DNA of 64,000 nt, from positions 181,412,001 to 181,476,000 of the forward strand of contig OZ024743.1 of assembly GCA_964016885.1 (NCBI GenBank). Reading direction: 5' to 3'. This DNA is from Eledone cirrhosa (Eukaryota). Position 1 is the first letter of the stretch; each line of letters begins with the position of its first letter. Under the pieces are notes generated by a model. That model saw only the letters and a program-made list of their open reading frames with translations, ran no database searches and had not been told where the DNA came from. Below are positions 1-59,532 of the stretch, piece after piece. Both the position numbers and the translations under genes were made by a program.

Positions 1-147
1 CTTCTTACTTCTCTCGTGCTTTTCAACAAGTTTCAGCATACAGTCGTTAGTTGTTTCAAGGTATTTGGCCAGTCCAATGATGGTGGTCTTGTAAGCAAGT
101 TCAAATTGGATCAGGCCAAGGCCTCTTTGAGTTATAGGGAGGTAAAG
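1..147 (-). mobile_element. R4/Dong-type non-LTR retrotransposon fragment (RT thumb region), 5'-truncated, runs off the window start
   Basis: Hand translation of the minus strand gives LYLPITQRGLGLIQFELAYKTTIIGLAKYLETTNDCMLKLVEKHE, matching the LYxxRxxGGRGL motif of R4/Dong RTs. It abuts (TTA)n at 148-166. Confidence 0.7.
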
Positions 148-166
148 ATTATTATTATTATTATTA

Positions 167-1117
167 CAGTTGCATTTATCTTGCCTTATGTTCATACGAG
201 TTATCACCAAGTCACAACCTCAAGAGACAAGGTCCGTCATGTTCAAGAAAGAACACACATACACACACACATGCATCTTTAGGTGTTTAGACTTGTGATG
301 TACTTATATTGACAGAATCTTCCTTAGTACATGGGCAGTTCCCATTAGTACTATATTTTGTATTTCTCCTATACGCGGGTTTCCTGGGATTTGCGATAAG
401 TAATCATTATCCCCCTTAGTTATCATTCCTAGAGCGCCTACAACCACTGGTATTGTTTTAGTTGTCAATTTCCACATTTTTCCAATTTCTATCTCCAGGT
501 CCTTATACTTGCTCAATTTTTCAAATGTTTTTATAGATACATTCTTGTCTATTGGAACGGGTATATCAATTAGAAGGCATACCCTCTTTTTAAAGTGCTT
601 CAGTAATATATCAGGTCTATTTGCATCTATTTTTCGGTCTGTTTGGATGCTAAAGTTCCACAAGATTGAGATGTGATCTTTTTCAAGTACAGGAGGTGGT
701 TGATTCTCCCACCAATTCTTTTGATGGGACAGGTCAAAATGGTTACACATTATCCAATGTATGTATTGTGCAGCTCTGTCGTGCCTGTTTAGGTATTCGG
801 TTGGAGCTATAGGACTGCACATTGAAATTATATGATCAATGGTCTCTGGTTGTTTTTTACATACACGGCATAATGGGTTGCATCCATTTTTGATTATGTT
901 GGCTTGGTAATTTTTTGTTGGTAGACACTGATCTTGTGCTGATATAATTAGTCCTTCAGTCTCCGATTTCAGTCCAGAGGATGCCAACCACTGATGGGTT
1001 AAAGTTTTGTCAACATCAGGATTGTTAGTTCTTTCTGGGTATTTTCCAAACAGAGGCTTTTCTTGCCATTTCTTAGCCAGTTTCTGTAGCAGTTCTTTCT
1101 TTGCAGTTACTTTTACA

Positions 1118-1119
<2 letters not shown>
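167..1119 (-). mobile_element. R4/Dong-type non-LTR retrotransposon, 5'-truncated (zinc knuckle, restriction-like endonuclease, 3' UTR)
   Basis: ORF 304-987 contains CRVC..ETIDHIISMC (CCHC) and NRPDI..LIDI.VP..EK..KY.DL (PD-D/ExK RLE), ending PVVVGALG. Flanked on both sides by (TAA)n on the element strand (148-166, 1120-1166). Confidence 0.9.

Positions 1120-1166
<47 letters not shown>
1120..1166. repeat. (TTA)n microsatellite shared by a Dong element (minus) and Tx1 copy A (plus)
   Basis: Direct reading. Confidence 0.98.
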
Positions 1167-1380
1167 GGCGACCTACGTAGGAAATCGTATCATCGTGAGC
1201 TTCGCAAAGGTTTGTTGTTTTCGTTTGTTTAAAATTGCCATTTATCGAAAATTTTTGTTGTTAGCTATTTATAAAGTCACAAAATTTGCTTTCTAAAAGG
1301 GACACTCAAAAAGATTGGGGCCTTGAGCCCAAAATTTAAACTTTTATAATTATCAAACAAAAAATTTATTAGAAAAAATC

Positions 1381-3288
1381 ATGGACGACTCACAGCTACA
1401 CCAAGTAGCTGAGAGCCTTCCACACAAACTAACACCTCACACCAACACCACCATTATAAATATTACTACGATTGCCAACACTAAAAATATAAGCAGTAGC
1501 AATAATTTAAATTTGTCTCATGCAGACATTCATTTCCCACCATTACCAATGACTGCAGGCATTGAAGCCGCCACCCCCACCCCCACCACAGCGACAACAG
1601 AAACAAAAGAAAAAAATAAATTATCTCGTGACATCGAAATGGATTCACCCAGAATGGACTCTTCCACACAGAACACCACTGACGCCACCACCACCACAAC
1701 TGAAACTAAAAATAACAATAACAAAAGTAACAATAACAACAACAACAACAACAATGAGAATAACAACATCGTGTCTTTTGCCAAAGCAGCTAAAACATGC
1801 AAAACAATCCAGGTAACTCAGGAGGAATTAGATGAAGCCAAGAAATTGGTAAAGAAAGATGGGTACAGGGTCAGCCTCACCCCCTCCCCCTAATAAAATG
1901 GAGCATCGGCGCCTATGCACCGTGTCTTATCGGACGATTAACATAAAATCGCGCCGAGAGGAACGGGCAACCGAGTCCCAAATCCAAAAAGCTTTGGGAC
2001 ATGTGTGGGCAAAAAAAAACCACATCAGATGTGGGCAGAAATATGGAACCGTGGACGTGTTCTTTGGAACACCACAGGAGGCCAGAGAACACTCCATGGA
2101 CCCATTAAGAAGTGACGACTTCACACTCGTCCCAAGCTATTGTGGCCAGAGACTCGTGAAGATCAGGGTGACCCACGTTCCAACGGCTATCGAAATTCCC
2201 TGGCTAATGGCTGCCGTCCTCGCCGGCATCGAGGCCAACACCAAGATAATCGAAATAGCTAAAGAAAAGCAGGGGAACGGGTCCGGATCTGGGATGGAGC
2301 TCCTGATCCAAGCGGACCAAAAAAGGATTGAGGAGATCCCAGAGGTAATAGACCTCACTGACGGCAGCCACCTCACCGTAATCGTCGAGGGCAGAAGGCC
2401 TATGTGTGTCGTTTGTGGTGAAGGAACCCACCTAAGGGCTTTCTGCCCTCAGGCTAAAAGGTTGAGGCCACCTCTCTTACCCACCCCAGTGACTCAACCA
2501 TCAACACTACCAGCAGCAGAAATGGCAGCAACAATTGTAGCAGCAACAACAGAAGCAACTGTAACAGCAACAACCCCAGCAACAGTAACAAAACCAACAC
2601 CACCACCCAACGCGCCAGAACTAGCACCAGCGCCTACACCATCCACCACGCCACAACCAAAACCAACGCCTGTGGAGGATTTTCCACTCCCCGACCTATC
2701 GCAACTGTGGACAGATTGTGACGACGGGGAGTGGGAAACGGTATCAGGAAAAAATAAAAAAATAAAAAGAAGCCAAAAAAGAAAAAATCCTCTTCCTTCC
2801 CCCTCCAAAAACAAAATACAGAGGGAAACAAATAAACTATCAAACAAAAAAGTTAGGACAGCTATGCCACCATCCACACCAGCATCACCAACCCCATCAC
2901 CACAAACACCAACACCATCACCATCATTAACCCCAACACCACAATCACCAACACCACAAAAGTCACCAAAAAGCGAAACAGAAAAAAAAACACAACAAAC
3001 GCAAACAAAACAAAACAACCAAAACGATACACACTACACAGCATTAAATTTGAACAACAAACAATTATTACACTACATCCAACACAACACCAGCATCACA
3101 GAAAAAGACTACACAACAACCCAAAAGTTCACACCATACAAATCACTCGCACCACACAGAAAACATACACGACACTAGACTTCCGACAAACACTCTCCGG
3201 GAGGATTTATAAGGACATCCTTCCGGAGGAGGCTACAAGCAGTGAAAAGGATGGACAAACCACCCTTCCTCTACAAGAAGTAAGGTAA
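1381..3288 (+). pseudogene. Tx1 copy A ORF1 (Gag-like, CCHC zinc knuckle, Pro/Thr-rich), frameshifted
   Basis: ORFs 1381-1893 and 1859-3178 plus a terminal frame ending ...LPLQEVR* at 3286-3288; motif EGRRPMCVVCGEGTHLRAFC. Confidence 0.85.
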
Positions 3289-3322
3289 GTGGTCTTTCCC
3301 ATCTTTTCCACTCCATTTCAAC

Positions 3323-6300
3323 AAGACCTCACTCAGAATAGGTAGCAGATATGCCGGTGGCTTGGGGTCGTCATGGAAGCAGGGCCACCTGCTCAACGAC
3401 CTCAGGTCACTAAACATAGATGTAGTGGCCTTCAGCGAGACCAGAATCTCCCAAGCACGGGCCTTCGCACCGATCTTCGGCGGCTACGATGTGTACGCAT
3501 CTCCCAGCCGTCCTGGATCGGGGAGAGGAGTTGCTGTGCTTTTTCGGAGAGGTTTGGATCTCGCCATACGGGCCATCTTCCTGGACCCAGAAGGTAAGTT
3601 GGTGGTGCTGGACGTGACCAGCGGAGACGGGCAAGCTTTCAGGCTAGTGGCCGTCTATGCCCCGACAGGAGCAGGGCGGGATGATTTCTTCCGGCGTCTG
3701 GAGACCTTTCTTGGAACGTCCTGCTCTTTAGTGTTAGTGGGCGACTGGAACGGGATCTTAGATGCACGCTGGGACTGTGTGGGATTAGCGAATAGGGGAA
3801 GAGGGTGAAAGAGCCTCACCAACCTGCTCAGGCGTTTTGAACTGTCTGACCGGTACCGATTGGATTTCCCGAATGTGCCAATGTCGACTTGGACAAACCG
3901 CATAGGGTCATCCAGATCATATCTAGATAGAGTATTTTGTAGGGAAATAGATAGGTCTAGCATAGACTGTCCACAATTCAAGATAGTCAGCTACACGGAC
4001 CACAAATTCGTGATCTGTGTGCTTGACTTAGATAGGCTTCATAGACGAGGAACCGGCTACTGGAAGCTAAACGCGTCCTTACCAGCGCGCAAGGCCTACA
4101 GAGACCGGATTAGCGAACTAGTTAAGCGGGCGTTGACGGGGGCCATCGTCAACAACAAGTGGTGGTTTGCTCTGAAAAGAGCGATTAGAATAGAGTTCAT
4201 TAGGTTTAGTAAGGCTTTAGCAATAGAGAAAAATAGAGCAGAGGGGAAACTAGTTAGAAATTTAGACGAGGCGCTTAGCAAAGGCATCGCGACCGACGTA
4301 CTTGCGGCGAAATTGGCCCTTGACCAATTCTTCAATGCAAAGCACGAAGGTTGCGTTGTCAGAGCTAGGGTGCGTGCTCTCAGACACGAGGGAACGAAAG
4401 CCGTTCAATGGGCCCGAGTGGCGGAGGCGCGTCGTGGCAACAAAGTCACGATCCGGTCTTTGGTGGACCACGACGGGTGCATGCTACTCGATCCCAGGCA
4501 AATGTGTGAAGCTTTTCAGCGACACTTCGCACAGCTGTTCGGGAGCAGCGGCGGGCCAGATCGAGGGATGGACTTTAGTGTCTACCTCGACGGACTGCCG
4601 CGGCTCTCGGCCACTGAGGTGGAGTGTTGCGAAAAGCCGATAACAGCCACTGAAGTACGGGAGGCAATGACTGGCTGCACAAGGGGTAAATCGCCTGGTT
4701 TGGATGGTCTGCCCTATGAACTTTACGTACAGATGCCAGACTTGTTCGGAGGCCTCTTGGTGTGATCTCTACTGCAACTGGCAACAGAACGGAAGAAATC
4801 CCAGCTCTGTGAGCCGAGTAGCTGTGGCGCTGCTGAGAAAGGATCCGAACAAGGGGGATAACGTAGATAATTTCAGGCCCATAACTCTGCTAAACACAGA
4901 GTTCAAGATTTTGGCCAAGGTGCTAGCAAAGAGGTTGGCGCTTTTCGTTGGTGGTCTGGTGGGAGAGGCGCAGACATGCGCCATTCCCGACAGATCCATC
5001 CACGACAGCCTCCACCTCATGCGATACATCGTGAAGAGGGTAGCTAAGGAACCTGGCACGGGTGAGTCCTTGATCAATTTAGATAGGTCGAAAGCTTTCG
5101 ATAGGGTCGACCATCGTTACCTAGCGGCAGTCCTGAGGGCGGCTGGCTTTGGGCCCGTCTTCAGAGGCTGGATCGCTGCCATGCACAGCGACATCAGCTC
5201 TGTGGTGAGAGTGAACGGTCACCTTTCGGAACCGTTCAACTTCATATGCTCGGTCCGCCAAGGATGTCCCCTCTCGTCCCTCTTGTACGTATTGACTCTC
5301 GAGCCATAACTGCACAAACTAGAGACGTTGAGGAGGATCCCGCGCGAACTAGGATGCGGAAGATCCGTATCAGCATATGCGGACGATGTCACCGTAGTGG
5401 TGTCGAACGCCAAACACATCGAGGCGATCGGCACTACACTAAGAGAATAAGAAGCGGTGAGAGGAGCAATGATCAACCAGGAAAAGTCAGTAGGCCTGCA
5501 GCTCGGCACCTGGAGAGGCAGGTCCATGCCGTCCAACAGCGTCGTCGGGCGGTGGACGGACGGACCGGTTAAATTGCTAGGGGTCTGGTTCGGTCCGGAC
5601 CTCCAGACGGACAAAAACTGGGACGAGGTGACGAGCAGGGTGGCTTCTCTCACCCAGAAATGGGCGGAGAGGAAGCTATCCCTGAAAGGTCGAGCGGAGG
5701 TGGCTAATGCGTACATCGCGTCCGTCATCTACTACCGCCTGACCGTCGTACCTTGTCCTAAGCCCCGCCTGACTGCGCTGGAGCGTTTGCTCTTTCGCTT
5801 TTTGTGGAAAGGATGCGCTCCGATGGTCAGGCGGTCTATCTGCTGTCAACACCCGCTACGTGGAGGGCTGAGCAAGCCGTGGCTGATGATGCGCAGACAC
5901 GCGCTCAGGCTACGACATCTCCACCTCTTCCTCGATGGTGATCAGGTGTGGTCGCCGTTTGCTAGACACGTCTTTCCCCAGCTCGTCTCCTTGGCGGGGC
6001 TGCAGTCCTGGGTCAAGCGAAGACCGAGAGGGAGCGTTTGGAGACTGGAATGCCTTCAGGCGCTCCTCACAGCCCTCAACCAATCGGGCAATGTGATCGG
6101 TGGAAACTCCAACTTGGCGTTCTATAGAGGATTAGTGGAGGGGAAGAACGACGACGTACTTGGAGAAACTCTAGCCGTCGATGAAAATCAACTAGCCAAT
6201 CTCTTCGGAAGGACTTTCGGGCCGGGGCCTATGGACAACTTCCAGAAATCCCTGGCCTGGCAGTGCTACCGAGGAGCCTTGCCAGTTCGGGATAAACTCT

Positions 6301-6746
6301 ACAGGCATGGAGGTGCCGTCAGCCGGGCATGTCCGAGATGCCCGCAGGGCGACGAAACCGTTCTGCACGCACTCGTCCAGTGTCCGAGCATTGCTGACTT
6401 GTGGGTTTATGTCGAACACCTGCTGTTACGTGTAGGACGGATCCAGCTATCAGCTGAGTCCATCGTGAGGATTGCCCCGCCCTCTTCCTTTAGCCGGGAA
6501 GGGCAGGCAGTTTTTATCTGTCTGGTGGCCATGGCGAAAGAGATAGTATGGTGGACACGTTTGAAAGGGCTGAAGACGAGCACTTACTTCTTCGGTGATG
6601 CCCTGATTAACTTTTTCAAATTTCATTTGAAAAGGAAAATCAGGGTAGAGAGGGAAGTTCTCTCTTCCCAGCATTTTGTTGAAAGATGGATGAGAGAAGC
6701 AAGTATGGCCCGAGTGAATGGGCCTACTCTGAGTATGTGTCTGTAA
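3323..6746 (+). pseudogene. Tx1 copy A ORF2 (APE endonuclease-RT-CCHC), inactivated
   Basis: Start codon appears mutated to AAG at 3323 (caacAAGacc vs caacATGgcc in copy C). Motifs FSET, GDWN, SYLDR, TDH, KSPGLDG, FRPITLLN, QGCPLS, AYADD, CPRC..ETVLHALVQC. Several stops and frameshifts. Confidence 0.92.
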
Positions 6747-6991
6747 ATTAAAGGTGGAAAACTGGGAGAGGACACTTGCCCTGGTGGTCAGGGTCACTGT
6801 GGCCTTTTAATGGGCTTTCTCCACAAATGTCCCTCGGAAGTCTCCCCCCTATTGAGGAATTTTTCATTGTTATTTTTTATTATATCCTCTGTTTTTTTTA
6901 CACGCAGAAATGCCCATTTGTACCGTCCTGTATTCTCCTGTACTGTCCTTAATGTCTACTTTATGTAAACCCTTGTGGTTAATAAAGAAAG

Positions 6992-7037
<46 letters not shown>

Positions 7038-8267
7038 GTGGAAGGGATGCGCTCCCATGGTCAGACGATCCATCTGCTGTCAACACCCGTTGCGTGGAGG
7101 ACTGGGCATGCCATGGCTTATGATGCGCAAACATGCGCTGAGGCTGCGACATCTCTGGTGCTTCCTTGACGGTGAACAGGTTTGGTCGCCGTTCGCCAGG
7201 CACGTTTTCCCACAGATCGTCTCCTTGACGGAGCTGCAGTCCTGGGTCAGGAAAAGACCTAGGGATAGCGCTTGGAAACTGGAATGTCTCCAGACGCTCT
7301 TGCCGCTCTGCCAGCTGGACACCAGTAGCGGTGGAACATCCACTTCGGCGTTCTATAGAGGACTAGTGGAGGGGAAGAGCGACGACGTTCTCGGAGAGAT
7401 CCTGGGCGTCGAAGAAGATCAGCTGTTTGCTCTCCTCCGGATAACTTTCAGCCCAGGGCCTATGGATAACTTCCAAAAATCCCTGGCCTGGCAGTGCTAC
7501 CGGGGAGCATTGCCGGTGCGAGATAAGCTATACAGGCACGGAAGTGCCGTCAGCCGAGCCTGTCCGAGATGCGCGCAGAGCGACGAAACCGTCGTGCACG
7601 CACTTGTTCAGTGCCCGAGCATTGCTGACTTGTGGAGCTATGTCGAACAGTTGCTGTCGCGTGTAGGACTGATCCGGTTATCGACTGAGTCCATTGTGCA
7701 GATGGTCTCGCCGTCTTCCTTCGAGGAGGAAGGGCAGGCGGTTTTCATCTGCCTGGTGGCCATGGCGAAAGAGATTGTGTGGTGGACAAGGTTGAAAGAG
7801 TTAAAGACAGACACTTTCCTCTTCGGCGAATCCCTAATTAACTTTTTCAAGTTTCACTTGAAGAGGAAAATCAGGGTGTTGAGGCAAGTGCTGTCTTCTA
7901 GCAAATTTGTTGAAAGGTGGGTGAATGTAGCGAAAATGGTCCGAGTGAACGGGACCGCTCTGAATATATGCTTGTAGTTTGAAGAATGGGGAAACAATTG
8001 AGAGAGGGCGCTTGCCCTGGTGGTCAGGGTGGCCGTGGTCTTTTGTGTGGTTTTCGCCACGAGTATCCCGCGGAGGCTCCCCTCCTCCCATTGGGGAATT
8101 TTTCATTGTTTCAATTTTCATTTTTATTATTTATATATATATTTCTGTCTTTTTTTCTTTTTCGTTTCTTATATAAATAATAAAAAACCTTTAACGCACA
8201 AAACCCACATCGTATCGTCCTGTGCCGTCTGTAATGTTTTTCTTGATGTCAGCCTTTGTGGCCAATT
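7038..8267 (+). mobile_element. 5'-truncated Tx1 copy A' in tandem behind copy A
   Basis: ORF2 C-terminus from WKGCAPMVRR to the stop at 7977, homologous 3' UTR, short (ATC)n tail at 8268-8278. Confidence 0.9.
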
Positions 8268-8788: not shown

Positions 8789-9679
8789 GTTTCTTTATTT
8801 GCCACAAGGGCGCAAAAAGATGGGGACAAATACAGAGTGGGGAGTTTACATACATGCGTGTAAAAATATAGAATTAATAAAAATAACAAATAACAAATAA
8901 CAATTAACTATTGAAATCCCCAATAGGGAGAGGCGTTACACATGGGTTGTACACTTCCCGAAAAAATGTACAACCCTCATCTCCAAGAGCACCAAGAGTG
9001 AGAGCTCCTTTCCTCTCTTCCTCTTTTTTCTCAACCTACAGGTTTATATAAAGAGAAGGCCCAACCACTCGGGCCATCCTTGCCACATTCACCCACCTTT
9101 CGTAAAATTTGCTGGGGTGCAGCACCTCTCTCTCCACTCTGATTCTTCTTCTAAAATGATATTTGAAGAAGCGAACCAGTTGTTCGCCGAAGAAAAAGGT
9201 GTCTGACCTCAGCCCTTTCAGTCTCGTCCACGATATAGCCTCTTTCACCATAGCCATTACACAGAGAAAAACCGCCTCTCCTTCATTTTTAAAGGAAGGT
9301 GGCGGTTTGATCGCAATAATGGACTCGGTGGTCAACCGGATTTGTTCCACCCGTGACAGTAGTCGTTCTGCATAGCCCCACAGGTCGGTAACGCCCGGGC
9401 AGTGTACGAATGCGTGCGCGACGGTTTCCTCGTCCCGCACGCATCTCGGACAGATCTTTTTCGAGGGATCCCTGCCCGGGCGCCCGTGTCTGCAGAGCTT
9501 GTGTCGAACGGGTAGAGCTCCTCGGTAGCACTCCCAGGCCAGGGACTTTTGGAAGTTGTCCATCGGTCCCGGGCGGAATGTCCTACCGAACAGACTGGCC
9601 AGTTCGTCTTCCTCTACGCCTAGAGTTTCTCCGAGAGTGTCGTCGCACTTGCTGCGGACTAACCCTTTATAGAATGACG
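8789..9679 (-). mobile_element. 5'-truncated Tx1 copy B' between (AGAT)n tracts
   Basis: ORF 9036-9563 MDNFQKSLAWECYRGALPVR..CPRC; AATAAA-ended 3' UTR; (AGAT)n at 8700-8786 and 9680-9781. Confidence 0.9.
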
Positions 9680-9699
9680 AGATAGATAGATAGATAGAT

Positions 9700-9781
<82 letters not shown>

Positions 9782-9995
9782 TTCTTTATTTACCATAAAG
9801 GCATAAAAAGAAGGGACAAATACAAAGAAGGAGTTTATATACAATCGAGTAAAAAGGGTATAACATGAAAATAATCGAAAATAACCTCAAAAGGGAGGGG
9901 ACGTGATGGGGGTTGCCCACACCCCCGAAAAAGTGTGCAATCCTTTGCCCGGGGAGCACATGGAGAAGGTGCTCCCCACTCCTTTACTTCTTTAC

Positions 9996-12900
9996 CTACA
10001 GGATGGTATACAGAGAAGGCCCATTTACACGAGCCATTCTCGCCACTATCACCCACCTTTCATAAAACTGCCTGTGGCCAAGCACCTCTCTCTCCATTCT
10101 TATCCTTCTTCCGAAGTGATATCGGAAGAAGTAGACCAGACTATGGCCAGAGAGGAAGTTGCCTGACCTCAGACCTTTCAATCGTGTCCACCAAACAACC
10201 TCTTTCAACATGGCTATTACGCACAGAAAAACCGCCTTTGCTTCCTTTGTGAAGAGGGGAGGCGGTTTGATTGTCATCACGGACTCGGCGGTCAATTGAA
10301 TCGGCGCCACCCGCGACAGCAGTCGTTCGGCGTAGCCCCACAGATCAGCCACGCCCGGACATTGCACCAATGCGTGCGCAACGGTTTCTTCGTGACGCAC
10401 GCATCTAGGGCAAATCTTTTTTGAGGAATCCCTGCCCGGGCGCCCGTGTCTGTAGAGCCTCTCTCGAACGGGTAGAGCCCCTCGGTAGCACTGCCAGGCC
10501 AGTGACTTCTGGAAGTTGTCCATTGGTCCTGGGCCGAAAGTCCTACCGAACAGGCTGGCCAGTTCGTCTTCCTCCATGTCCAGCGACTCTCCAAGGGTGT
10601 CATCGCCCCTGCTAGCCACCAGCCCTCTATAGAATGATGAGGTAGATTCTCCACCGATGGCCTGGCCCGCTTGCCAGAGAGCCCTGAGCGCCTGAGCACA
10701 CTCAGTGTGCCAGTCTCCCAGTTTTCCGGATCTTTGCTTGACCCAGGACTGTAGCTCGGTGAGCGAGACGAGTCTCGGAAAGGCTCGTTTCACGAACGGA
10801 GCTCACACCGGTTGACCAGTGAGGAATACCTGTAGGTGCCGTAGCCTTAATGCATGCCTACGCATCATCAACCACGGCATCCCCAGCCCTCCTTTCGAAG
10901 GTTGTTGGCAGCAGATGGATCTTCTCACCATAGGAGGGCGCTTCTTCCAAAGAAATTGGAAGAGCATGCGTTCCATGGTGGTGAGTGTTTCCTTAGGGCA
11001 AGGCACGACAGTCAGGCGGTAGTAAGTGACGGACGCTATGTAAATGTTCGCCACCTCCGCCCGGCCTTTTAGGGACAGCTTACACTTGGCCCATTTCTGG
11101 GTTAGTGCAAACACCTTGTTCGTAACCTCGTTCCAGTTCTTTTCCACCTGGAGGTCCGGTCCAAACCAGACCCCAAGCAACTTTACCGGGCCCTCCGTCC
11201 AGTGTCCGACGACACCGTCGGGAGGCATCGGTCTGCCTCTCCACGTTCCGAGTTGCAGCCCGATGGATTTTTCCCGGTTCAGTTTCGCTCCTGACAACCT
11301 TTCGTAATCCTCCAGTAAGGTACCGATCGCCTCGATCTCCGAGTCGGTCGATACCATTACTGTTACGTCATCGGCGTAGGCCGACACCGCTTTGCTCAAT
11401 CCTGGTTCCAGGGGGATACCCTGCAACAACTCCAACTTCCTCAGTAAAGGCTCGAGAGTCAATACGTACAGAAGGGAGGAGAGAGGGCACCCCTGTCGAA
11501 TGGATCGTGTGATTTCGAACGGCTTCGAAAGGTAGCCGTTCACCTTGATCCTAGAACAGATGTGGTTGCTATGTAAGGCAGTGATCCAGCCTCTGAAAAC
11601 AGGACCGAACCCAGCCGCCGCTAGCACCGCATCCAGGTAACCGTGGTCGACCCTATCGAAGGCCTTAGACTGATCCAAGTTGATCAGGGCCCCACCGAAG
11701 CCGGGTTTGTTGCCAACCCTCTCTATGATGTATCGCATGAGGTGGAGGTTATCGTGAATGGATCTGGATGGGATAGCACATGTCTGCGCATCTCCCACCA
11801 GGCCACCCACGACAAGCGCCAACCTCTTTGCTAACACCTTGGCCAAAATCTTTAACTCTGTGTTTAGCAGGGTTATGGGCCGAAAATTATTTATACTATC
11901 TCCGTTGTTCTCGTCTTTCCTCACCAGCGTGACTACGCCCTTGGCTACAGAACAAGGAATTCTCCCGTTCTGCTGCCAATTGCAGTAGACCGCTTCGAGG
12001 AGTTCGGAGAAGAAGACCGGCATCGAGACCTGGAGATTTGCGTCTGCTGCATTGGCTCAGCGCATCTCCGATCTCATCAGCCGAGATTGGTCCCTCGCAG
12101 GACTCTGCCTCTTCGCTCGAGAGACGCGATAGGCCGTCGAGGTATGGACCGAAATCCACGTCCCCGCCCGGACCCTCGCCTCCCCCGAACAATCGGGCAA
12201 AGTGCCTTTGAAAGGCCTCGCACATCTGCTTAGGCTCCCGGATCACCCGTCCATCTTCGTCTTGCAACGACCGGATGGTGGATCGATTTCCACTCTTAGC
12301 TCCTGTCACGCGGGCCCAGCCAACGGCTTTGGCCCCCTCATTACCTAGAGCACGTATTTTACTTCGAATGACGCAGCCTTCGTGCTTTGCATCGAAAAAC
12401 TGGTTCAAGGCCGTCCTCAATGCCAGCACTCTGGCCACATCTTCGCTCTTGATTGCCTCTTCTAATTTACCTGTTAATTCTTTCTCGTTTCTATTCCTAT
12501 CGGCAGCTAACATCTTGCTATAACTTATTGATTCTGTTCTAATCTCTCTTTTGAGAGATGCCCACCATCGGTTGTTGACGATTGCACCCGTCAACCTCTC
12601 CTTAACTAATCTGCTAATCCGGTTTCTGTAAGTCTCTTTTGCCGGTAAAGACAAATTAAGTTTCCAGTAACCGGGACCCTGTTTATGTGTTTTCTCGAGA
12701 TTGACTACGCAGGTCACTAATTTGTGATCCGTGTAGCCAACCGTGCGCATTTCTGGACAGCTTAATATGTCCCTATCCTTACTTCTAACTAAGAATCTAT
12801 CTAAGTACGATCTAGATTGACCACTGTGGTTTCTTCAAGTCCAGGTAGGCACAGTTGGAAAATCTAGTCGATATCTATCGACCAAGTTAAAACGGTCGAG

Positions 12901-13404
12901 TAACCCCTTGAGGCTGTTACACCCCCCTCTATTAGGACATGCTCCTGCATAGTCCCAACGTGCATCTAGGATGTCATTCCAATCCCCCGCTAGAAGCAGG
13001 GAACGCGACGTTCCCAGAAAAGTCTCTAAACGCTGGAAGAAGTCGGGCCGTTCAGCTCCGAAGGGGGGGTAGACGGCGACCAGTCTTAAGGCCGCACCTT
13101 CACTACTACCAACGTCTAGCACCAACAAACGACCCTCCGGGTCCGAGTGCACAACCTGTACGGCAAGACCCAGGTGTTTTTGCAGCAGTACGACAACCCC
13201 ACCCCCACCTCCAGGTTGACAGAGAGATGCATGCACCTCAAAGTCATCGAAGGTAGGGGCCAGCTGCCGCACGACGCTGATCCGAGTCTCACAGATAACC
13301 ATTACATTTATACCACATGACCTGAGGTCATTTAGAAGCTTTGCTTGCTTCCAAGTTGAGCCCAGGCCACGTGCATTTAAACATCCTACTCTTAACACAT
13401 CCAT
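9996..13404 (-). pseudogene. Tx1 copy B ORF2 (APE-RT-CCHC)
   Basis: Starts MDVLRVGCLNARGL; motifs ICET, GDWN, TDH, FRPITLLN, QGCPLS, AYADD, CPRC. In-frame stop at 12835-12837; frameshifts near 12023 and 10800. Confidence 0.92.
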
Positions 13405-13437
13405 GTGGGCGGCAGAGCCAAAGGAGAGTGTAGAGAC

Positions 13438-15352
13438 CTACCTTTCCGCTTCCCGGGGTTCGGGTCGCACGACTTCCATGGGGTCCGGGGTGTTGGGTGA
13501 AGGGGTGTCTTGTGGTGGTGTGGGGTCATCAGTGTGTGGTGGGGTTGGGGTGTTTGGAGTTGTGTTGGGGAGGGGAAGGGGAGGGGGAAAGCTTTTTAGT
13601 AGGACGCGGTTTATGGGTTTGACAGAGGGTGGTCCTACGTCCTCCTTAAAATCCTTTTTTAGTTTTTGGTAGAGGTTCATTGGGATCTTTATTAATTTTA
13701 AATGTGGGTAGTTTTCTGAAGAAACAAAGTTTACACCTTCGGTTTGTACCGAAGGATTATTGTATATGAGTTCATTTAATTTATTATTGTTTCTGTTGAT
13801 GTAAGTATAGTGTAATGTCTTTTTTTCGGATGGTGTGAGTGTTTCGAAGAGGGGAGGGGCAGGTTTTGTTTTGTTTGTTGCTGGAGGGGTGTTTTCTGTT
13901 TTGTTGGATTGTGTTGAGATTTGGGTGGGGGTTGTTTGGCCTTGTGTGTTTTGCACATGTTTTCTTTTTTTTCCTTTTAATCTGTCTGAAGGACTCCGTT
14001 TCTTCCTCCGAATTCGGGGGGATTATCTTCAGTGTTGGAGGGAAGAGGTATGTTTGCTGGTAATGTTTCCGTGTTGGTTTTCTTTGTGGGGGAGATGGAT
14101 GTCACTATGTTGGACTGTGTTGTGTGTTGTGTCTGCGGTGGTTGTGTTGTTTTATTGAGTGAGGGGTTGGGTGGGCCTGTATTTTGTTTTGGGGTAATAT
14201 GTTGTGACTGTTTGTGTTGTGGTGGTGGTGTAGTTTTACTGAGGGACGGGTTGGGTGGGACTGAGTTTTGTTGTTTGTTTATCTGTTGTGGTGGTGGTGG
14301 TGGAGCTGGTGTTGGTAGCAGGGTTTTCTTTTTGTTGAGTTGGGGACAAGCGGCCTTCAGGTGCCCTCTGCCTGCACAGATATGACAGGATGGCCTTCTC
14401 CCCTCCACGCTAATGTTTATATACCCGTGGCCCTCTAATAGGATTCTGTCGGGTATTTGGGCGATGCGTTCAGGCTTCATTTGCACTACCAGCTCTATAC
14501 CTGTTCCACTGAACGCATTGCCTGTGGTTTTCCCAATGGAAATCACGTTGTCATTCACTGGATCGATGAAGCCAGCTATGAGCCAGCAGTAGTCCACATC
14601 TGGCATCATTGCATCCAGCCATATGCGTTGAGTTCTTTTACCCATATAAGATGGATAAAAGGTAAAATTTTTCGAACGAATCGGTGACAAAGCACATTTT
14701 TTTGCCGCCGATTCGTTCTTCATAATAATTGCTAGGCTTCCATAGAGTCTGTCTTTTCTTATGAAAGTGGTTTCATTAAGTACTTCTGTGAGTACTGTTT
14801 TGATATCTGCTTGAGAAGGCTGTTCAGGTTTTTTTAAAGTGTTGTTGATGGTGCGGAACACGACCGTTCTACTTTCAATGTCTTTGGTGAGTTCTTGAGG
14901 CATTTTAACCGATAAAATACCATTCTCTCCTTCACTTATGTATTGTTTGGCGTCTGTGATTCTTCGTGCCACATCTGAAATATTTTCGGGTATATATGTC
15001 AAAGATTTCTTTGTTTTTTGTGCAAATGAAATCTTGACTCTGTCGTCTGCTTTGCTTTCTGTTATGGTGTTATTTTCAAATGTTATTTTTGTGTTTGTTG
15101 TGTCTTTGTTTGTGGTGTTAGTATTGTCATGCAATTTTTCAAATTTTTTTTTTCGTTGTTGGAATCCATGTCCAGATTTGTGTTTTCGTCATTTTTCTCC
15201 GCAGATTCGTCTGTTTTTATTTTAATTTTTCTTTCCTTCTCTATGACGTTAGTTGGGAAGGAAGGGGGGACTAAAGCGTGCGAGCTTACAACTCTTACCG
15301 CTGTCCCCCCACCACTGTTTTCGTTCGCTTTTTTAAAAAACAGGTTTTTCAC
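13438..15352 (-). pseudogene. Tx1 copy B ORF1, frameshifted
   Basis: ORFs 15083-15352, 13977-15134 and 13438-13956; CCHC motif EGRRPSCHICAGRGHLKAAC. Confidence 0.85.
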
Positions 15353-15529
15353 CTCTAGGAGGGGTAAAAATGAGCTGACCCACCGTCTGACAGTTCAGAC
15401 GGGGGGTCAAGCTACACAATAGTATCAAAATTAAATTTGAACTCACAAAATTTCCGCAATAAATTTGAACAAAACTTCTGCGCGAAGTGAATTACATCCA
15501 CACTGTAGAACAGACGACAGCTGGATTGT

Positions 15530-15609
<80 letters not shown>

Positions 15610-18770: not shown

Positions 18771-19734
18771 CTCTTTGAGTCTCAGTCATTGATGTTAGTT
18801 AACTGGAAAGTTTGTTGAAATGAATATCAAGCCACTACCTGCAGCCTCAGATATTCAGGACGTATCGGAGGGTTCTTGCTGTTCCCATCAAGCATGCCTT
18901 TTGAAGCGTTCCAAAAAGCGTGAAGGGGCCAATTTTCTTTAACCATCCCTGGAAACTTTTTGAGATAGTCCCCAGTGCGCCTATGACAATCGGGATCACT
19001 TTGACTTCATGGCAGTTCCAAATCCTTTTTACCTCCCACTTTAAGTCCTGGTATCGGTTAATTTTCTCCCTCTCCTTCTCTTGCACTCTCGTGTCGAATG
19101 GGCAGGCCACATCCACAATCAGGCACGATCTTTTTTCTTTGTCCAAAACCACCAGGTCAGGTCTATTGTGTTCCAGTTTCTTGTCCGTCTGTATCCTAAA
19201 ATCCCACAGCATCTTCACCTGATCGTTTTCTATCACCGCCTCTGGCTTATGCTCATACCACTTCTCAGAATGTGGTAAATTGTTTACTTTTCATAGGTGC
19301 CAGTGGATCACCCTGCCCATCACATCATGTCTCCAGCCCTTATAGTGAGTCTGGGCTAGGTGTTTACACTCGGATACAATGTGAGCCACAGTCTCCTCTC
19401 TCTCTCCACAGATCCTGCACAGTGGGATAGCCTCCTCCTTGTAAATGTGGTGTTTCAACCACTTCGTTTTGAGGGCCTGCTCCTGCACAGCCATTAACAT
19501 TCCTTCTGTAGCCTTTTTAAGGTATCCTCTTTTCAACCAGTTCCATGTCTGTGGATCTCTAAATTCAGTTTTCTCAAAGAAGGTACTATGAAGGGATTTT
19601 TCCTGAAGGCTGCTCTTTCTCCTTGATGTTATTTCCTCCTTGGACATCCCCTGGCCTATTATCCCCTCCTTCAGTACAGTTCTGAGCATTGGCTCCTTAC
19701 TATCAGTCACGTATTTGTGTAGGTTGTTTTTCTC
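18771..19734 (-). mobile_element. R4/Dong-type non-LTR fragment (CCHC + RLE), 5'-truncated
   Basis: ORFs 19291-19710 (CRICGEREETVAHIVSEC) and 18847-19236 (NRPDLVV..IVDVACP..EK..RYQDL..PIVIGALG); (TAA)n on both sides (18734-18770, 19735-19787). Confidence 0.9.
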
Positions 19735-19787: not shown

Positions 19788-19995
19788 GAGTTTGAACGGA
19801 CGTCTTTTTTCTCGTTCTCGTAAGTTTATTTATTTACCTGTCAAAACTTATTTATTGAATTTTTTTGTTGTTGTGTAAGGCATACAAGCCCTTGGACTTT
19901 GCCCTGTGAAGGGGAAAGAATAATATTTGGGCCTTTTGGCCCAAATATTTGAACTCTTTTACATTTTTTTTTTTAATTATCGAAAAAAAAAAAAT

Positions 19996-21902
19996 ATGGC
20001 TGACCACGCCCCCCAGCGATATGTCTGCTGTCGTGCGACTACGACGTAGAAGTTGAGAGGAGCGCTACGGCGAAATTCACAGAAATTGATACAACAAACA
20101 CCACCACAAACAATGTAAACAAAGACACCAATGATAACAACACTGAGAACTCTAATTTTGAAAAAAAAATGACAGTTACAGCGACAATGAAAATACAGAT
20201 AACAAAAAAAATGACAAATGCAACAACAATATCAACACCACTAACATGAAAACAAATAGCGACAACACCAACAGCAACAATACCAACTGCACCGATAACA
20301 ACGGCGGCACCAAAGACAACAATGATAACAGTGACAGTGATAACAACAACAACACCAACAAGAACAACGACAACAACAACAACACCCCCAAAGACAACAA
20401 GAACACTTTCGCTGCGGCAGCAGCAAAAAAGAGGCCATACTTCAACATGGACCTCTCAAAGAAAGATGAAAAGTTGGCCCAGGCATGGAAGCTCATCAAG
20501 CAAGAGCAAACCTGGGCCAACTAAACGGTCCCGGTAGAAGCTATTGAGGCAGTGGAGCGCAGAACGGTGCATTATAGCTACATCTCAGCACAAACCAAAA
20601 GGGCAGCTTTAATCCCACAAGCAGATGTCGAAGTCGCGTGAGGTGCATCAGAGAAGACACCCAGTACATAGAGAGGGGCAGACAGTACGGCACCATTTCG
20701 GTGCTGTTCAAGTCAGAAGCCCTCGCTATGAGACACGCTATCCCACCAGGACTTGACATGTGGTGGCTTCTGGGATGTGTGATTGTGGAGGGGACGGATA
20801 CTGTCCCGATAGAAGTGACCAGAACGGCCAGAGAGGACTGGTCCGGGGTTGACTTGGAGATACTTCTCCAGATCAGACCGGAGAATGTGAAGACAATCCC
20901 GGACCACATCCGCCTTCAGAATGGGACTGTCATTCACATTATGACCGAAGCAGAAGGCCGCATTGTTTTGTTTGTGGGGGAAAAAAATCATTTGCGAGCC
21001 TTCTGCCCTCAACTGCTGAAAGATGCAAGGGGTCGAAATGCTCCACTGCTGCCGACGCCGGGGCGAGGACCACAACCAACACCAGCACCGGCAAAACGAC
21101 CAACAACAACACCAATAGAAAGACCACCACCAACATTGACCACCCAGGGGGAAAACGAGTAAAGTTGTCAAATTCCCCCTCCCCCAAAAATACACACACC
21201 AATAAAAACATAAACACACACACAGACACACTTACAGACACAGACCCCTCATCTACCAGTAGTGAAGATGAGGGAAAACCAAAATCCCCCAAAATACAAA
21301 AAAGGAAACACAATAAAGAAAGAAAAAAACTCAACAAAGCACAAAATCACCCACAATAAAAAAACGCAGACACCACCCACGCAAACATCTCTCCAATAAC
21401 ACCAACATCAACACCACCATCACCATCACCAGAATCCCCCAAACGCAAACAATCGAAACAGACGCAAGAACAAATATACACACAAACATCTGAAACCACA
21501 GACACTGCACTCACAACAAACACAGACACAACCGAAACAACACCACCAAAACCATCTCCACCACAGCCACGCAAACAAATAAAATCACACCAACAAAACA
21601 TACAAAACTTTGTGCTCGTCAGGAGGGCCAACAAGGAACTGATGGCCCTCGTAGCACGAAGTGAAAATATACAAAAAGAGGGGGAAATGTTTAAATCGAG
21701 CACATTTCGCGTGCCGGAAGATTTGGTTCTGGTGCGAATGTCGCTCGATTTATACAAAGAGATACGAGACAGCTTTCTTCGGGACGTGGGAACCCTGAAC
21801 GTAAAACCCACTTCAAGACTTTTAAAGGGGTTCCCAAAAGAAACCCCACCAACTATGGAGGTCGAACCACCCGACCTTCACAAGAGCCCGGAAGGTAAGT
21901 AA
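19996..21902 (+). pseudogene. Tx1 copy C ORF1, multiply frameshifted
   Basis: Fragments FAAAAAKK, RGRQYGTISVLF, HLRAFCPQL and PLLPTP are homologous to the ORF1s of copies A and B; ends ...HKSPEGK*. Confidence 0.8.
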
Positions 21903-21934
21903 ACCTCTCTTCTCTCTCTTTTTAACCTGCCAAC

Positions 21935-24900
21935 ATGGCCGTATTAAGAGTAGGAAGTTTAAATGTTCGAGGCCTGGGATCGTCCTGGAATCAGGGTCAC
22001 CTGCTCAACGACCTCAGGTCTCTAGAAATGGATGTAATTGCCGTCAGCGAGACCAGGATTTCCGACACGCGCGCACTAGCCCCAATTTTCGACGACTATC
22101 AGATCTTTGCATCTGTTAGCCGGCCGGGAATGGGAGGCGGGGCGGCAGTACTGTTTAGGAAAGGCCTGGATCTCGAGGTAAGGTCGATCTTCCGAGACCC
22201 GGATGGGAAGTTGGTGGTCCTGGACGTGAACAATAACGAAGGTGGTGCCTTTAGACTGGTGGCCGTCTATGCCCCTACTGGGGCAGGACGGCCGGACTTC
22301 TTTATACGCCTGGAAGCCTTTCTGGGTACGTCTCGCCCTTTGCTGTTAGCGGGGGACTGGAATGGCATCTTAGACGCACGCTGGGACTGTTTGGGAGTAT
22401 CCGATAGGAGCGGGGTGGGGGGGGGGGGGGTGCAAAAGAACCTGATCAGCCAGTTCCAACTGTCTGACAGGTACCGACTAGATTTGCCTAATGCGCCAGT
22501 GTGGACCTGGGCTAACCGCATAGGGTCATCTAGATCGTATATAGACAGGATATTCATTAGGAAAATAGACAGAAATAGTGTAAGCTGTCCACGTTTTAAA
22601 ACGGTCGCCTATTCAGATCACAAGTTTGTGATCTGTATGGTCGACCTAGATAAGACGCGTAGGTTAGGACCTGGTTACTGGAAGCTAAACATGTCATTTC
22701 CGGCACTTAAGGCTTACAGGGACCAGGTCAACAATTTAGTTAAGAAAAAGTTGACAGGGGGAGTCGTCAACAATAGATGGTGGGGGGGGGGGCTCTCAAA
22801 AGAGAGATTAAAGTAATGTCGATAGAGTTTAGCAAAGAAGTAGCGTTAGAGAAAAATAGAAAGGAGGAGTTGGTAGATAAGTTAGACGAGGCTATTGGTA
22901 GTGGCATTGCAACTGATGTGCTAGCGGCGAGAATGGCATTAGACCATTTCTTCAATGTGAAACACGAAGGTTGCATTGTCAGAGCTAAGGCGCGTGCTCT
23001 GAGAAACGAGGGAGCCAGAGCTGTTCGATGGGCCCGCGTGGCAGAGGCGCAGCGTGGTAATAAAACCACGATTCGGTCTTTGGCGGACCGAGACGAACAC
23101 GAGCTGAGCGATTCCAAGCCTTTCGCCAACAGTTTGCTCGGTTTTTCGGGGAATGTGGCGGGTCAAAGATGGTGGTGGACTTCAATCCCAACCTCGATGG
23201 CTTGCCGCATCTCTCGACGGCTGACGCTGGGCGCTGCGAAAGGCCAATCACTTCAGCCGAGATTCAGGATGCCATTGTAGGCTGCATGAGGCGCAAGTCA
23301 CCCGGTTTGGATGGTCTGCCCTACGAGCTTTACGTAAATATGCCAGACTTGTTCTCCAATCTCCTCGAAGCCCTCTACTGCAACTGGCAGCAGAACGGGA
23401 GTATTCCCAGTACTGTGAGCCGGGGCGTAGTGATGCTTATAAGGAAAGACGAGAACAAGAGGGATACATTAGACAACTTCAGGCCCATAACTCTGCTCAA
23501 CACAGAGTTTAAGATTTTGGCCAGGGTGTTAGCGAAGAGGTTGGCGCTTGTCGTCGGGGATTTGGTTGGGGAGGCGCAAACTTGCGCAATCCCAACCAGG
23601 TCCATACACGACAACCTCCACCCAATGCGATACATCATAGAGAAGGTAGGGTGTAAACCTGGCTTCGGTGGGGCTCTGATCAATTTAGATCAATCGAAAG
23701 CATTCGATATGGTCGACCATCGTTATCTGGAGGCTGTCCTCAAGGCGGCTGGCTTCGGCCCCGTCTTCAGAAGCTGGGTCGCTGCAATGCACAGCGGCAC
23801 CTGTTCGGTGGTCAAAATTAATGGCCACCTCTCGGAACCGTTTCAGGTCTCCCGATTGGTCCGTCAAGGGTGCCCTCTCTCCTCCCTTCTGTACGTATTG
23901 ACTCTAGAGCCTTTACTTCGGAAGCTGGAGCTGTTGCAGGGTATCCAGCTCGAAATGGGACGCACCGGTAAAGTTGCTCGGGCTTTGGTTCGGGTCAGAC
24001 TTCCAGGTGGATAAGAATTGGGAAGAGGTGACGGGTAGGGTAGCCAGTCTCACCCAGAAATGGGCTGGGAGGAAACTATCACTGAAAGGTCGAGCGGAGG
24101 TGGCGAACGCGTACATCGCGTCCGTCATCTACTACCGTATGATAGTCGTCCCTTGCCCCCGTTCGCGCCTCGCCATCTTGGAGCGGCTCCTCTTCAAATT
24201 CTTGTGGAGGGGTCAGGTTCCGCAGGTGTGGTCGCCGTTTCTCAGACGGGCCTTTCCGCAGCGCGTTTCTTTGACTGAGTTGCAGTGCTGGGTCAAGAAG
24301 AGACCGAGACTGGGTAACTGGCATCTGGAATGTTGCCAGGCACTCACTGCCCTCTACCAGGCGGGCAATGAGGTCAGTGGAACTTCCACTCTCGAGTTCT
24401 ATAGAGGATTAGTGGTGGGCAAGTGCGATGACGCACTCGGAGAGGCTCTGGGAGTCAACGAAGTCGAACTAACCAGTCTGTTCCGGAGGACTTTCGAGCC
24501 GGTGACGATGGATAATTTCCAAAAATCCCTCGCTTGGCAATGCTACCGGGGGGGGGGGGGGGGGGCACTGCCGGTTTGAGATAAACTCTACAGGCACGGA
24601 AGTGCTGTCAGACGGACCTGCCCGAGATGCGCGCAGAACGACGAAATCGTTCTGCACGCACTCGTTCAGTGTCCGTGCATTACTGACTTGTGGAGTTATG
24701 TCGAACAGCTGTTGTCGCGTGTAGAACGGACCCGGCTGTCGGCCGAGTCCATAGTGAAGATCGACCCGCCGCCTTCTTTTGGCCAGGAAGGGCAGGAAAT
24801 TTTCCTCTGTCTGGCGGCAGTAGCGTTAGAGGTTGTATGGTGGACGAGGTTGAAAGGACTGAAGACAGACACTTTTCTCTTCGGCCAATCCCTCATCAAC

Positions 24901-25034
24901 TTTTCAAGTTTCACTTGGAAAGGAAGGTGAGGGTGGAGAGAGAAGTGCTGCCCTCCAGTACATTTACTGAAAGGTGGGTGAATGTGGCGAGAATGGCCCG
25001 TATAAGTGGGCCTACTCTGGACATGCGCCTGTAG
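21935..25034 (+). pseudogene. Tx1 copy C ORF2, YADD region deleted
   Basis: Starts MAVLRVGSLNVRGL; motifs VSET, GDWN, SDH, KSPGLDG, QGCPLS; jumps from GIQLEMG straight to the PVKLLG-equivalent near 23960. Confidence 0.9.
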
Positions 25035-25268
25035 ATAGGTAAATTTGAGGAGGAGAAGGGTGCCCTTATAGGGTGCTCTCGAAGCGTCGGGTCGTTCAGG
25101 ATTGGTGGGGTACCTGAGCGAACCCTGGGAATTTTCTTGCTGTATTTTTATTGTTACTTTGTTATTGTTATTCATATTGTTTACTCGATTTTTCTGTAAA
25201 ACCCCACTGTCTTGGTCTTTTGTATTGTCCTCTATATGTCGGCCCGTGTGGCCAATAAATGAAATCAT

Positions 25269-25905: not shown

Positions 25906-26036
<131 letters not shown>

Positions 26037-26712
26037 AGAGATGTCGCAGCCTCAGCGCGTGTTTGAGCATCATCAGCCACGGCATGCCCAGCCCTCCACG
26101 CAACGGGTGTTAACAGCAGATGGAGCATCTGACCATGGGAGCACGTCCCTTCCATAAAAAAAGAGTTGGGCCGGGGCGAGGCACAACGGTTAGGCGGTAG
26201 CATTCACTACCTCTGCTCGACCTTTCAGGGACAGCTTCCTCTCGGCCCATTTCTGGGTGAGAGAGGCCACCCTGTTCGTCACCTCGCTCCAGTTTTTCTC
26301 CATCTGGAGGTCCGGACCGAACCAGACCCCGAGCAATTTAACCGGTCCTTCCGTCCAGCGCCCCACGACGCTGTCGGGCGGCATGGACTTGCCTCTCCAG
26401 GTGCCGAGCTGCAAGCCCACCGACTTTTCCTGGTTTAACTTTGCTCCTGTCACTGCTTCATATTCCTTGAGAGCGGTGCCGAGCATCTGGACATTTCCGG
26501 CGCTTGACTGGGCCCGCTCTGATTATGCGCCTGTAGACTGAGGAGTGGAAAACTGAGAGAGGGCGCTTGTCCTGGTGGTTAGGGTGGCCGTGGTCTTTTT
26601 TGTGGCTTTCGCCACGAGTGACCCTCGGAAGTTTCCTCCCTATTGCGGAATTTTTGAATTTTTTGATATTTCTATCTTCTTGTTATAACCTTTTTTACAC
26701 GGCCAAAACTCA
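26037..26712. mobile_element. Rearranged Tx1 fragment: inverted ORF2 piece joined to a forward ORF2 end and 3' UTR
   Basis: Minus 26037-26486 encodes LGTALKEYEAVTG..RHLWCFLDG; plus ~26510-26712 encodes GPALIMRL* followed by the copy-A-type 3' UTR. Confidence 0.85.
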
Positions 26713-34905: not shown

Positions 34906-35050
34906 GTATGGTAGTTACTGATACCATTCCTCACCCGACTCTATACATATCATTAAATCTTTCTTTTACCACAGTCACCAGCTTTATTACTTCAACTTAC
35001 TTCATCCATTAGAATAAAAAATAAATTCAAAAAATACATTTTAAAATGGC

Positions 35051-51897: not shown

Positions 51898-51928
<31 letters not shown>

Positions 51929-54718: not shown

Positions 54719-54749
<31 letters not shown>

Positions 54750-58773: not shown

Positions 58774-58828
<55 letters not shown>

Positions 58829-59501: not shown

Positions 59502-59532
<31 letters not shown>

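Follow-up and report, generated by a model that had tools for sequence, protein, structure and literature searches.

The 64,000-nucleotide (nt) stretch of Eledone cirrhosa DNA analysed here (GenBank assembly GCA_964016885.1, contig OZ024743.1, positions 181,412,001 to 181,476,000 of the forward strand; hereafter the window) carries several copies of a long interspersed nuclear element (LINE) with two open reading frames (ORFs), and raises the question of whether the second of these, ORF2, can be excised from the element's RNA as an intron. This had been proposed in an initial annotation, in which a 5' splice-site motif at the ORF1 stop codon was joined to an acceptor-like YTGTAG formed by the ORF2 stop codon. 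The first half of that reading stood, as a U1-type donor motif at the ORF1 stop is well supported as a conserved sequence feature of most families, while the evidence for an acceptor at the ORF2 stop proved weak. A second conserved feature was identified at the sequence level, namely complementarity between the start and the end of ORF2, which is restricted to one clade. The reading favoured over ORF2 excision is that an RNA clamp of 45-60 bp, predicted to join the ORF2 start to the ORF2 end 3.4 kb away, accounts for the acceptor-like CTG-TAG and keeps ORF2 in the RNA; this is given about an even chance of being correct.

Splice-like signals at the ends of ORF1 and ORF2

The window is AT-rich animal DNA in which microsatellites are abundant. 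Three full-length but degenerate copies of the element (A, B and C) were compared together with three 3' fragments (A', B' and D). Their features are listed below in window coordinates; a slash marks the exon-intron border of a donor motif.

9781..15530, minus strand: copy B, two-ORF LINE, full-length and degenerate (ORFs; Pfam endonuclease, reverse transcriptase and zf-RVT domains; GATA repeat at both flanks)
13438..15188 (start approximate), minus strand: ORF1 of B, with one frameshift near 14022, a CX2CX4HX4C knuckle and a terminal E-R-TAG
13436..13444, minus strand: 5' splice-site motif of B, AAG/GTAGGT, overlapping the ORF1 stop (GT at 13441-13440)
9996..13404, minus strand: ORF2 of B (endonuclease, reverse transcriptase, zinc domain), with in-frame stops at 12835-12837 and 10803-10805 and a frameshift near 12020
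9781..9995, minus strand: 3' untranslated region (UTR) of B, with AATAAA 205 nt past the stop and no YAG site past the stop
1168..6990, plus strand: copy A, full-length, in (ATT)n (ORF1 stop 3281-3283; donor AAG/GTAAGT, GT at 3285; ORF2 stop TAA 6744-6746)
19789..25268, plus strand: copy C, full-length (donor AAG/GTAAGT, GT at 21895; ORF1 stop 21900-21902; ORF2 ATG 21935; ORF2 stop TAG 25032-25034)
7033..8260 (3' end approximate), plus strand: A', 5'-truncated, head-to-tail behind A (ORF2 stop TAG 7975-7977)
8790..9687, minus strand: B', 5'-truncated, in the (GATA)n tract of B (ORF2 stop TAG 9038-9036)
26014..26710, mixed strands: D, a truncated copy (inverted 5' part 26014-26482 on the minus strand; 3' end on the plus strand; stop TAG 26534-26536)

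Relatives for comparison were obtained from a scan of prokaryote assemblies, which gave 62 loci, 58 of them (L001-L058) in contigs of a single assembly (G001) labelled as a bacterium, Arenicella. These contigs hold head-to-tail arrays of mostly intact LINE units of 6.4-6.9 kb and are likely animal host DNA binned with the bacterium; two further assemblies (G002 and G003) were seen to contain many LINEs as well. The outgroup loci form two families, a larger L011 type and a smaller L001 type, and their ORF2 is approximately 42% identical to P0001, the closest database relative of the window elements.

Donors were scored by pairing with the U1 5' end from the U1 gene in locus L059 and by match to the nine-letter donor consensus. 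It was observed that a donor matching eight or nine of the nine letters lies within five bases of the ORF1 stop in A, B and C alike, its codon register differing each time: it follows the stop in one copy, falls within the final codon in another and lies one codon further upstream in the third. Among all GT sites it ranked first of 282 in A, second of 291 in B, first of 288 in C and first of 357 in L011, and only 20 of 1075 other stop-like triplets used as a control had a comparable adjacent donor. The L011-type ORF1 end reads TAA G/GTAAGT, like that of copy A, with the donor present at 98 of 98 ORF1-end matches (overlapping loci, in which copies are counted repeatedly). No donor was found at the ORF1 end of L001 (rank 232 of 362), where a TAATG overlap occurs instead and the best U1 site is 41 nt past the ORF2 stop. 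A set of more distant LINEs was also scored, for which 15 of 20 loci were kept (five were dropped, two for lying at contig edges, two for want of a usable start and one for a short ORF; the start codon is doubtful in four of those kept, L073, L076, L080 and L081), and in none of the 15 did a top-four U1 site precede ORF2. Both outgroup families have a second strong donor behind the ORF2 end, 15 nt past the TAG/TCG position in L011, L003 and L035 and at the L001 site just mentioned; these lie 24-40 nt before a pyrimidine tract and AG, and are likely too close to splice to it.

The six ORF2 ends in the window were as the initial annotation had described them, with TAG in B, B', C, A' and D and TAA in A, and the proposed join in B (GT 13441 to the stop AG at 9996) does remove 3446 nt and leave E-R-stop unchanged. 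The join in C keeps a stop as claimed, but alters the end of ORF1 by two residues, E-D-R-stop replacing E-G-K-stop. The donor of copy A lies past the ORF1 stop, and its use would leave the ORF1 protein (ORF1p) unchanged. In both B and C the post-join stop is supplied by a donor-like GTAA right behind the AG. Two further in-register TAG/G ends were found among loose contig ends. ORF2 ends could be parsed in 49 of the 62 related loci; free use of TAA or TGA there, named at the outset as evidence against an acceptor, was found in part, with TAG at 42 loci, TCG followed by a later TAA at five, and TAA at two (L001 type).

An AG is thus absent from the acceptor place in copy A, in L035 and L045 (TCG) and in L001; the TAA of copy A may reflect decay. 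The stretch before the stop is AG-free for 41 nt in B, 26 nt in C and 30 nt in each of A' and B'. Downstream YAG sites richer in pyrimidines than the stop AG numbered 2 of 98 in B, 15 of 112 in C (12 tied), 28 of 121 in L011 and 25 of 117 in L003, and the L011 family has pyrimidine-rich YAG sites 51-54 nt past the stop. The caveat that a leucine codon followed by TAG yields YTGTAG automatically was pertinent, as CTG and TTG make up 120 of the 250 leucine codons (48%) in the ORF2 pieces of the window. Moreover, YTAG also closes ORF2 in all six scored distant elements from one other host, five of which form one clade, and none of the six has a strong donor ahead of ORF2. The L011-type TAG sits in the loop of a local hairpin, and at five loci TCG occupies the same loop. 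Two further candidates were rejected: a strong acceptor 161 nt past the stop, in the distal 3' UTR of A, is not shared by A', B, C or D and so is not a common partner, and the pyrimidine-rich spacer was discounted as an acceptor for an ORF2-only or circular RNA, B and C having no AG between the spacer and the ATG.

An ORF2-less unit was not found in the window or among the 62 related loci, which derive from other hosts, when these were compared with two reference units (0 jumps), although this sample is small. ORF1 ends in G001 recur mostly at approximately 6.4-6.6 kb, and one 5.3 kb unit lacks part of ORF1. Among 18 sequencing runs none was listed as holding RNA, which counts neither for nor against splicing. 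When contigs of four of these runs were compared with copy B, the joint 9995-to-13442 was not among the 15 joints listed of 253, and one contig of run X4, a run of unrecorded type, crosses 9996 unbroken; such contigs show presence only and carry no weight against splicing.

Predicted pairing between the start and the end of ORF2

The predicted arms of the duplex in the three full-length copies are as follows, with dinucleotide shuffles as the control.

13370..13447, minus strand: 5' arm of B, spanning the ORF1 end, the 33-nt spacer, the ORF2 ATG (13404) and the first codons
9961..10030, minus strand: 3' arm of B, holding the acceptor-like CTG-TAG (stop 9998-9996) followed by a donor-like GTAAAG; predicted pairing -58.7 kcal/mol, 1 of 500 shuffles as low
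3283..3344, plus strand: 5' arm of A; predicted partner 6721-6781, 44 pairs, -60.3 kcal/mol, 0 of 500 shuffles as low
6721..6781, plus strand: 3' arm of A; the duplex is in the global minimum-energy fold
21894..21955, plus strand: 5' arm of C; predicted partner 25010-25070, 46 pairs, -51.6 kcal/mol, 0 of 500 shuffles as low
25010..25070, plus strand: 3' arm of C, duplex partner of 21894..21955

With a fixed window of 40 nt on either side of the ATG, the best partner in the whole element was the ORF2 end in six of six elements (A, B, C, L011, L035 and L001), and across five window settings the ORF2 end ranked first in 25 of 30 tests, where approximately 2.5% would be expected per test (about 9 target windows of 340-391). 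It was likewise the best partner in nine of nine outgroup representatives, which belong to only two families. Among the controls, the ORF2 end ranked 65 of 355 in L059, which is adjacent to a U2 gene, and first in none of the 15 scored distant LINEs (best rank 9 of 256), so that the duplex holds rank 1 in 6 of 6 clade elements and in 0 of 16 distant ones.

The register of the predicted duplex varies by lineage, the window copies pairing across the stop into the 3' UTR and the L011 family within the last codons. Six core positions around the AUG are predicted to pair in all three window copies, two of them with changes on both sides, and the identity of the spacer among these copies is 61-68%. 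In each of these copies the bases surrounding the AUG are matched by the terminal CTG codon and by the first letter of the stop; in copy A (3323) AAG occupies the position of the relatives' ORF2 ATG. In B and C the third letter of TAG is matched as well, by the C at position -4 relative to the AUG, and ORF2 bases 13-20 find their partner in the pyrimidine run that precedes the stop. The pyrimidine run, the terminal codon and the first and third stop letters are in this way all predicted partners of the ORF2 start, which offers a second explanation for the acceptor-like letters. As TAG is the sole stop codon ending in G, pairing together with the need for a stop could give rise to CTGTAG. Of the nine donor letters, 7, 7 and 5 are predicted to be paired in the three window copies. 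Within the L011 family, 25 of 36 pairs are invariant, one has changed on both sides and five have changed on one side while still pairing. The duplex persists in L001, which has no ORF1 donor, a TAATG overlap and a TAA stop, and in L035 and L045, with TCG in place of TAG.

A number of observations weigh against a functional duplex. All of the pairing is predicted, and compared with the best partner of every other window in the element the junction windows rank only 15-78 of 166-177. The 60-nt junction windows of B and C choose other partners, although the B window just upstream of the junction pairs with the start of the 3' UTR (rank 3). The duplex is part of the global minimum-energy fold of three of five elements, namely A, L011 and L001, and is missing from that of B and C. 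With only the non-coding parts considered, A and C still favour their cognate pair, whereas in B the spacer finds a better match than its own 3' UTR. The remaining five of the 36 L011-family pairs vary only by breaking. Both arms are largely protein-coding, so that changes in them are also constrained by the protein, and the signal is seen in only three independent lineages. The case for the duplex rests on the position of the partner in these three lineages and not on energy.

Two other donor-like sites were noted in the course of this work. In L003 and L035 the 5' UTR of the following unit, approximately 750-1000 nt past the ORF2 stop, contains a G/GTAAGA donor followed by its exact 14-nt complement, with a strong TTTCAG acceptor approximately 200 nt further on, and this may represent a second masked donor in the clade. 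In the 5' UTR of copy B (15241-15298, minus strand), a 58-nt GT...CTAAC...TAG segment has the look of a small intron, complete with a perfect branch motif, and the donor in it is predicted to pair in a local hairpin.

Clamp, intron and other readings

In the favoured model, the 5' arm would begin at or just before the ORF1 stop and cover both the donor and the ORF2 AUG. The distance from the ORF2 stop to the poly(A) hexamer is 205-234 nt for the window copies and 434-467 nt for the outgroups; a closed clamp would loop out ORF2 and place the poly(A) tail approximately 200-450 nt from the ORF1 stop, as against approximately 3.7 kb. The nearby tail would shield the two-ORF RNA from the nonsense-mediated decay (NMD) that long 3' UTRs elicit, as in engineered constructs in which folding back of the poly(A) tail suppresses NMD (PMC2689704). 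The ORF2 AUG would be buried and ORF2 made only when ribosomes finishing ORF1 open the helix, so that the excess of ORF1p would be set at translation; an AUG opened by a terminating ribosome would suit reinitiation, as proposed for ORF2 of SART1 and L1 (PMC5972666). The donor would bind U1 while ORF2 is transcribed, and both donor and AG would be masked once the 3' arm exists, the role of U1 being the weakest step. Donor-bound U1 is described as also blocking premature termination in the copia element EVD (PMC5580714), and among long-range pairings conserved in human genes, active splice sites are reported to be under-represented and inactive ones over-represented (PMC8052449).

The role of the donor is the least explained part of the clamp model, and for this reason the intron reading keeps part of its standing. 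The nearest poly(A) hexamers upstream of the donor are 242, 252, 317 and 398 nt before it in A, B, C and L011, with none in L003, and no canonical hexamer was found in ORF2 of five of six elements (0.6-1.3 expected), so that retention of the donor is poorly accounted for by protection of ORF2 from premature cleavage. The simplest explanation for a conserved donor so close to perfect is that it is used in splicing.

On the foremost alternative, considered possible but clearly less probable than the clamp, ORF2 is a regulated spliceosomal intron, an ORF1-only mRNA being formed when the donor is joined to the AG of the ORF2 stop or to one close by; the duplex would then serve as a bridge or switch controlling how much of the RNA is spliced. 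The donor ranks in the window copies and L011, its constancy in the L011 family, the TAG at five of six window ends and at most related loci, the in-register contig ends, the AG-free stretches and the YAG sites past the L011-type stop are all consistent with this, and the join would alter at most two residues of ORF1p. The site reported as conserved in copia is likewise the donor and not the acceptor (PMC5580714). Set against these are the prediction that in the window copies the donor and the AG both lie inside the helix and not free beside it, the absence of the AG from A, the TCG subfamily and L001, the last of which keeps the duplex without a donor, and the unremarkable pyrimidine tract in C, L011 and L003. 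The stop regained from GTAA behind the AG in B and C needs no design for splicing, as donors past the ORF2 stop occur in the outgroups including L001, and YTAG stops are common in distant elements that have no donor. A splice junction at a stop codon would escape junction-triggered NMD, which counts in favour of an intron. A switchable version, in which the U1 donor and a zipper of 3.4 kb range would decide between a spliced ORF1-only message and a locked full-length template with a buried ORF2 start, is held with similarly tentative confidence. The clamp and the intron can both hold, with a minor spliced fraction.

It is improbable that the donor is used with another partner, either an acceptor inside ORF2 coupled to early termination, as in copia, or a downstream host exon. 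A strong and conserved donor would fit such use, a pyrimidine-rich YAG occurs 415 nt into ORF2 in both B and C, and a predicted Octopus bimaculoides Rho GEF (P0010) starts with approximately 40 residues of this LINE's ORF2, which may be exon capture or an annotation error and suggests that pieces of the element enter gene models. The +415 site, however, is outside the top five YAG sites of A, L011, L003 and L001, ORF2 nearly lacks canonical hexamers at which early termination could occur, and host acceptors differ with each insertion site and would place no selection on the element's donor.

That both signals are inherited accidents (an arginine or lysine codon plus stop giving GTAA or GTAG, leucine plus TAG giving YTGTAG, and purine/pyrimidine skew mimicking complementarity) is the least likely reading and for the donor and duplex is largely refuted: the frequency of YTG among leucine codons, the ordinary duplex energy among all windows and the relatedness of the copies, whose counts are not independent, would agree with it, but the donor is kept across three registers and a divergent spacer and is rare at control stop triplets, dinucleotide shuffles preserve the skew and almost never reach the duplex energy, and with the fixed window the duplex is found again in two outgroup families, where sequence and register differ, but in none of 16 distant elements.

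Classification and comparison with known systems

The ORF2 pieces contain an APE endonuclease, a reverse transcriptase and a C-terminal zinc domain (Pfam PF03372, PF00078 and PF13966), and their best relative of solved structure is human L1 ORF2p (E 1e-50), with R2 far behind. The ORF1 knuckle CX2CX4HX4C is present in A, B, L011 and L001 and was not found in the degenerate copy C; the zf-CCHC Pfam match was above the cut-off for L011 and below it for L001. A CCHC zinc knuckle in ORF1 is a feature of the Tx1 group. By domains, ORF1 knuckle and repeat targeting the elements fit the Tx1 group as described in PMC4494074, and are termed Tx1-like LINEs. In a reverse transcriptase tree of 25 rows (of 26, one being left out as too short; no named Tx1 element is among them) the clade is well supported and its neighbours are not resolved. 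The five duplex-bearing rows all fall inside one clade of nine (support 99/100), the other four being proteins without DNA. No relative was found in the metagenome and viral scans, the ORF1 protein search gave no match, and Rfam gave no match in the window.

Copy A is flanked on both sides by (ATT)n and B on both sides by (GATA)n, and C lies between an (ATT)n and a (TAG)n tract, A' and B' being stacked in the same tracts as A and B respectively. An inverted 5' part relative to the 3' end, as in D, is the usual sign of twin priming. Fragments of another type of LINE, at window positions 1-1120 and approximately 18800-19730 (minus strand), each abut the (ATT)n tract just before A or C; they contain a zinc domain and a motif which we take to be that of a restriction-like endonuclease (Dong/R4-like). 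The window also contains a 46-nt tandem array of approximately 2.2 kb (35050-37310) and a satellite of approximately 41-44-nt units with extreme G/T strand skew, which extends over at least 17 kb (47040-64000). Several distant relatives were seen to end beside U2 genes (Keno-like) or U1 genes (L059, 6985-7155; L071, 255-435; L073, 99-272; L068, 298-461; L070, 311-474), and L059 sits in a U1/5S/U2 gene repeat.

Two questions bear on these features: how a single LINE RNA yields two proteins at widely different levels, and how it persists with 3-4 kb behind its first stop codon. In the available text of PMC5972666, reinitiation is the only explanation proposed for ORF2 expression in L1 and SART1. 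An end-to-end clamp over ORF2, kept across families only about 42% identical in ORF2, would be directly testable, while splicing, if it were true, would provide a purpose-made ORF1-only LINE message and a route to ORF1-only non-autonomous elements. Neither an ORF1-stop donor nor a start-to-end duplex was found for LINEs in a literature search, outside which most subscription papers, Repbase reports and supplements lay. Both are put forward here as conserved, clade-specific features, on the basis of outgroup families and negative controls as well as the window copies.

The Tx1 group includes target-specific LINEs such as Kibi on (TC)n, Koshi on (TTC)n, crocodilian Tx1 on (TTCC)n/(TTTC)n and Keno in U2 genes (PMC4494074), and L1-Tx1 is among the recently active families in Octopus vulgaris (PMC13282606). 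The window elements resemble this group in their two ORFs, zinc-knuckle ORF1, endonuclease-reverse transcriptase-zinc domain ORF2, microsatellite insertion and head-to-tail piling. They differ in that the repeats here are (GATA)n and (ATT)n, and in that the ORF1-stop donor and the start-to-end duplex are not mentioned for the group in the text available; the U2-adjacent relatives L059 and L073 lack both.

The Ty1/Copia shGAG system, as in Arabidopsis EVD, likewise combines a U1 donor, conserved where the gene for the structural protein ends, with a role for U1 beyond splicing (PMC5580714). The analogy drawn with it in the initial annotation is nevertheless a loose one. EVD is a long terminal repeat element, and RNA data showed its short intron to be centred on the protease region and linked to premature termination (PMC5580714). 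The intron proposed here from the sequence would be the whole 3.4 kb ORF2, with a shared 3' end. Copia-like premature termination was not supported, as judged by canonical signals only, given the lack of hexamers in ORF2 of five of six elements and of a shared early acceptor.

Human L1 SpORF2 (PMC2896524) and SpIREs (PMC5860796) provide precedents in that LINE RNA can be spliced and the spliced forms can retrotranspose. These forms, however, remove the 5' UTR or ORF1 and keep ORF2, the SpIREs being described as dead ends, and exact removal of ORF2 is not among the events given in the available parts of either paper.

As in the termination-reinitiation of SART1 and L1, the ORF2 start lies close behind the ORF1 stop, L001 having the TAATG overlap, and SART1 needs structure downstream of its stop-restart site (PMC5972666). 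The structure predicted here differs in being long-range, with the far ORF2 end as its partner; no such partner is named for SART1 in the text available. A parallel to the proposed clamp itself is provided by the poly(A) foldback constructs, in which sequence just past an upstream stop also pairs with sequence near the poly(A) signal. Those constructs carry an engineered 26-nt duplex in human cells (PMC2689704), whereas the duplex predicted here is natural, imperfect and 45-60 bp long, and would end approximately 160-450 nt before the signal.

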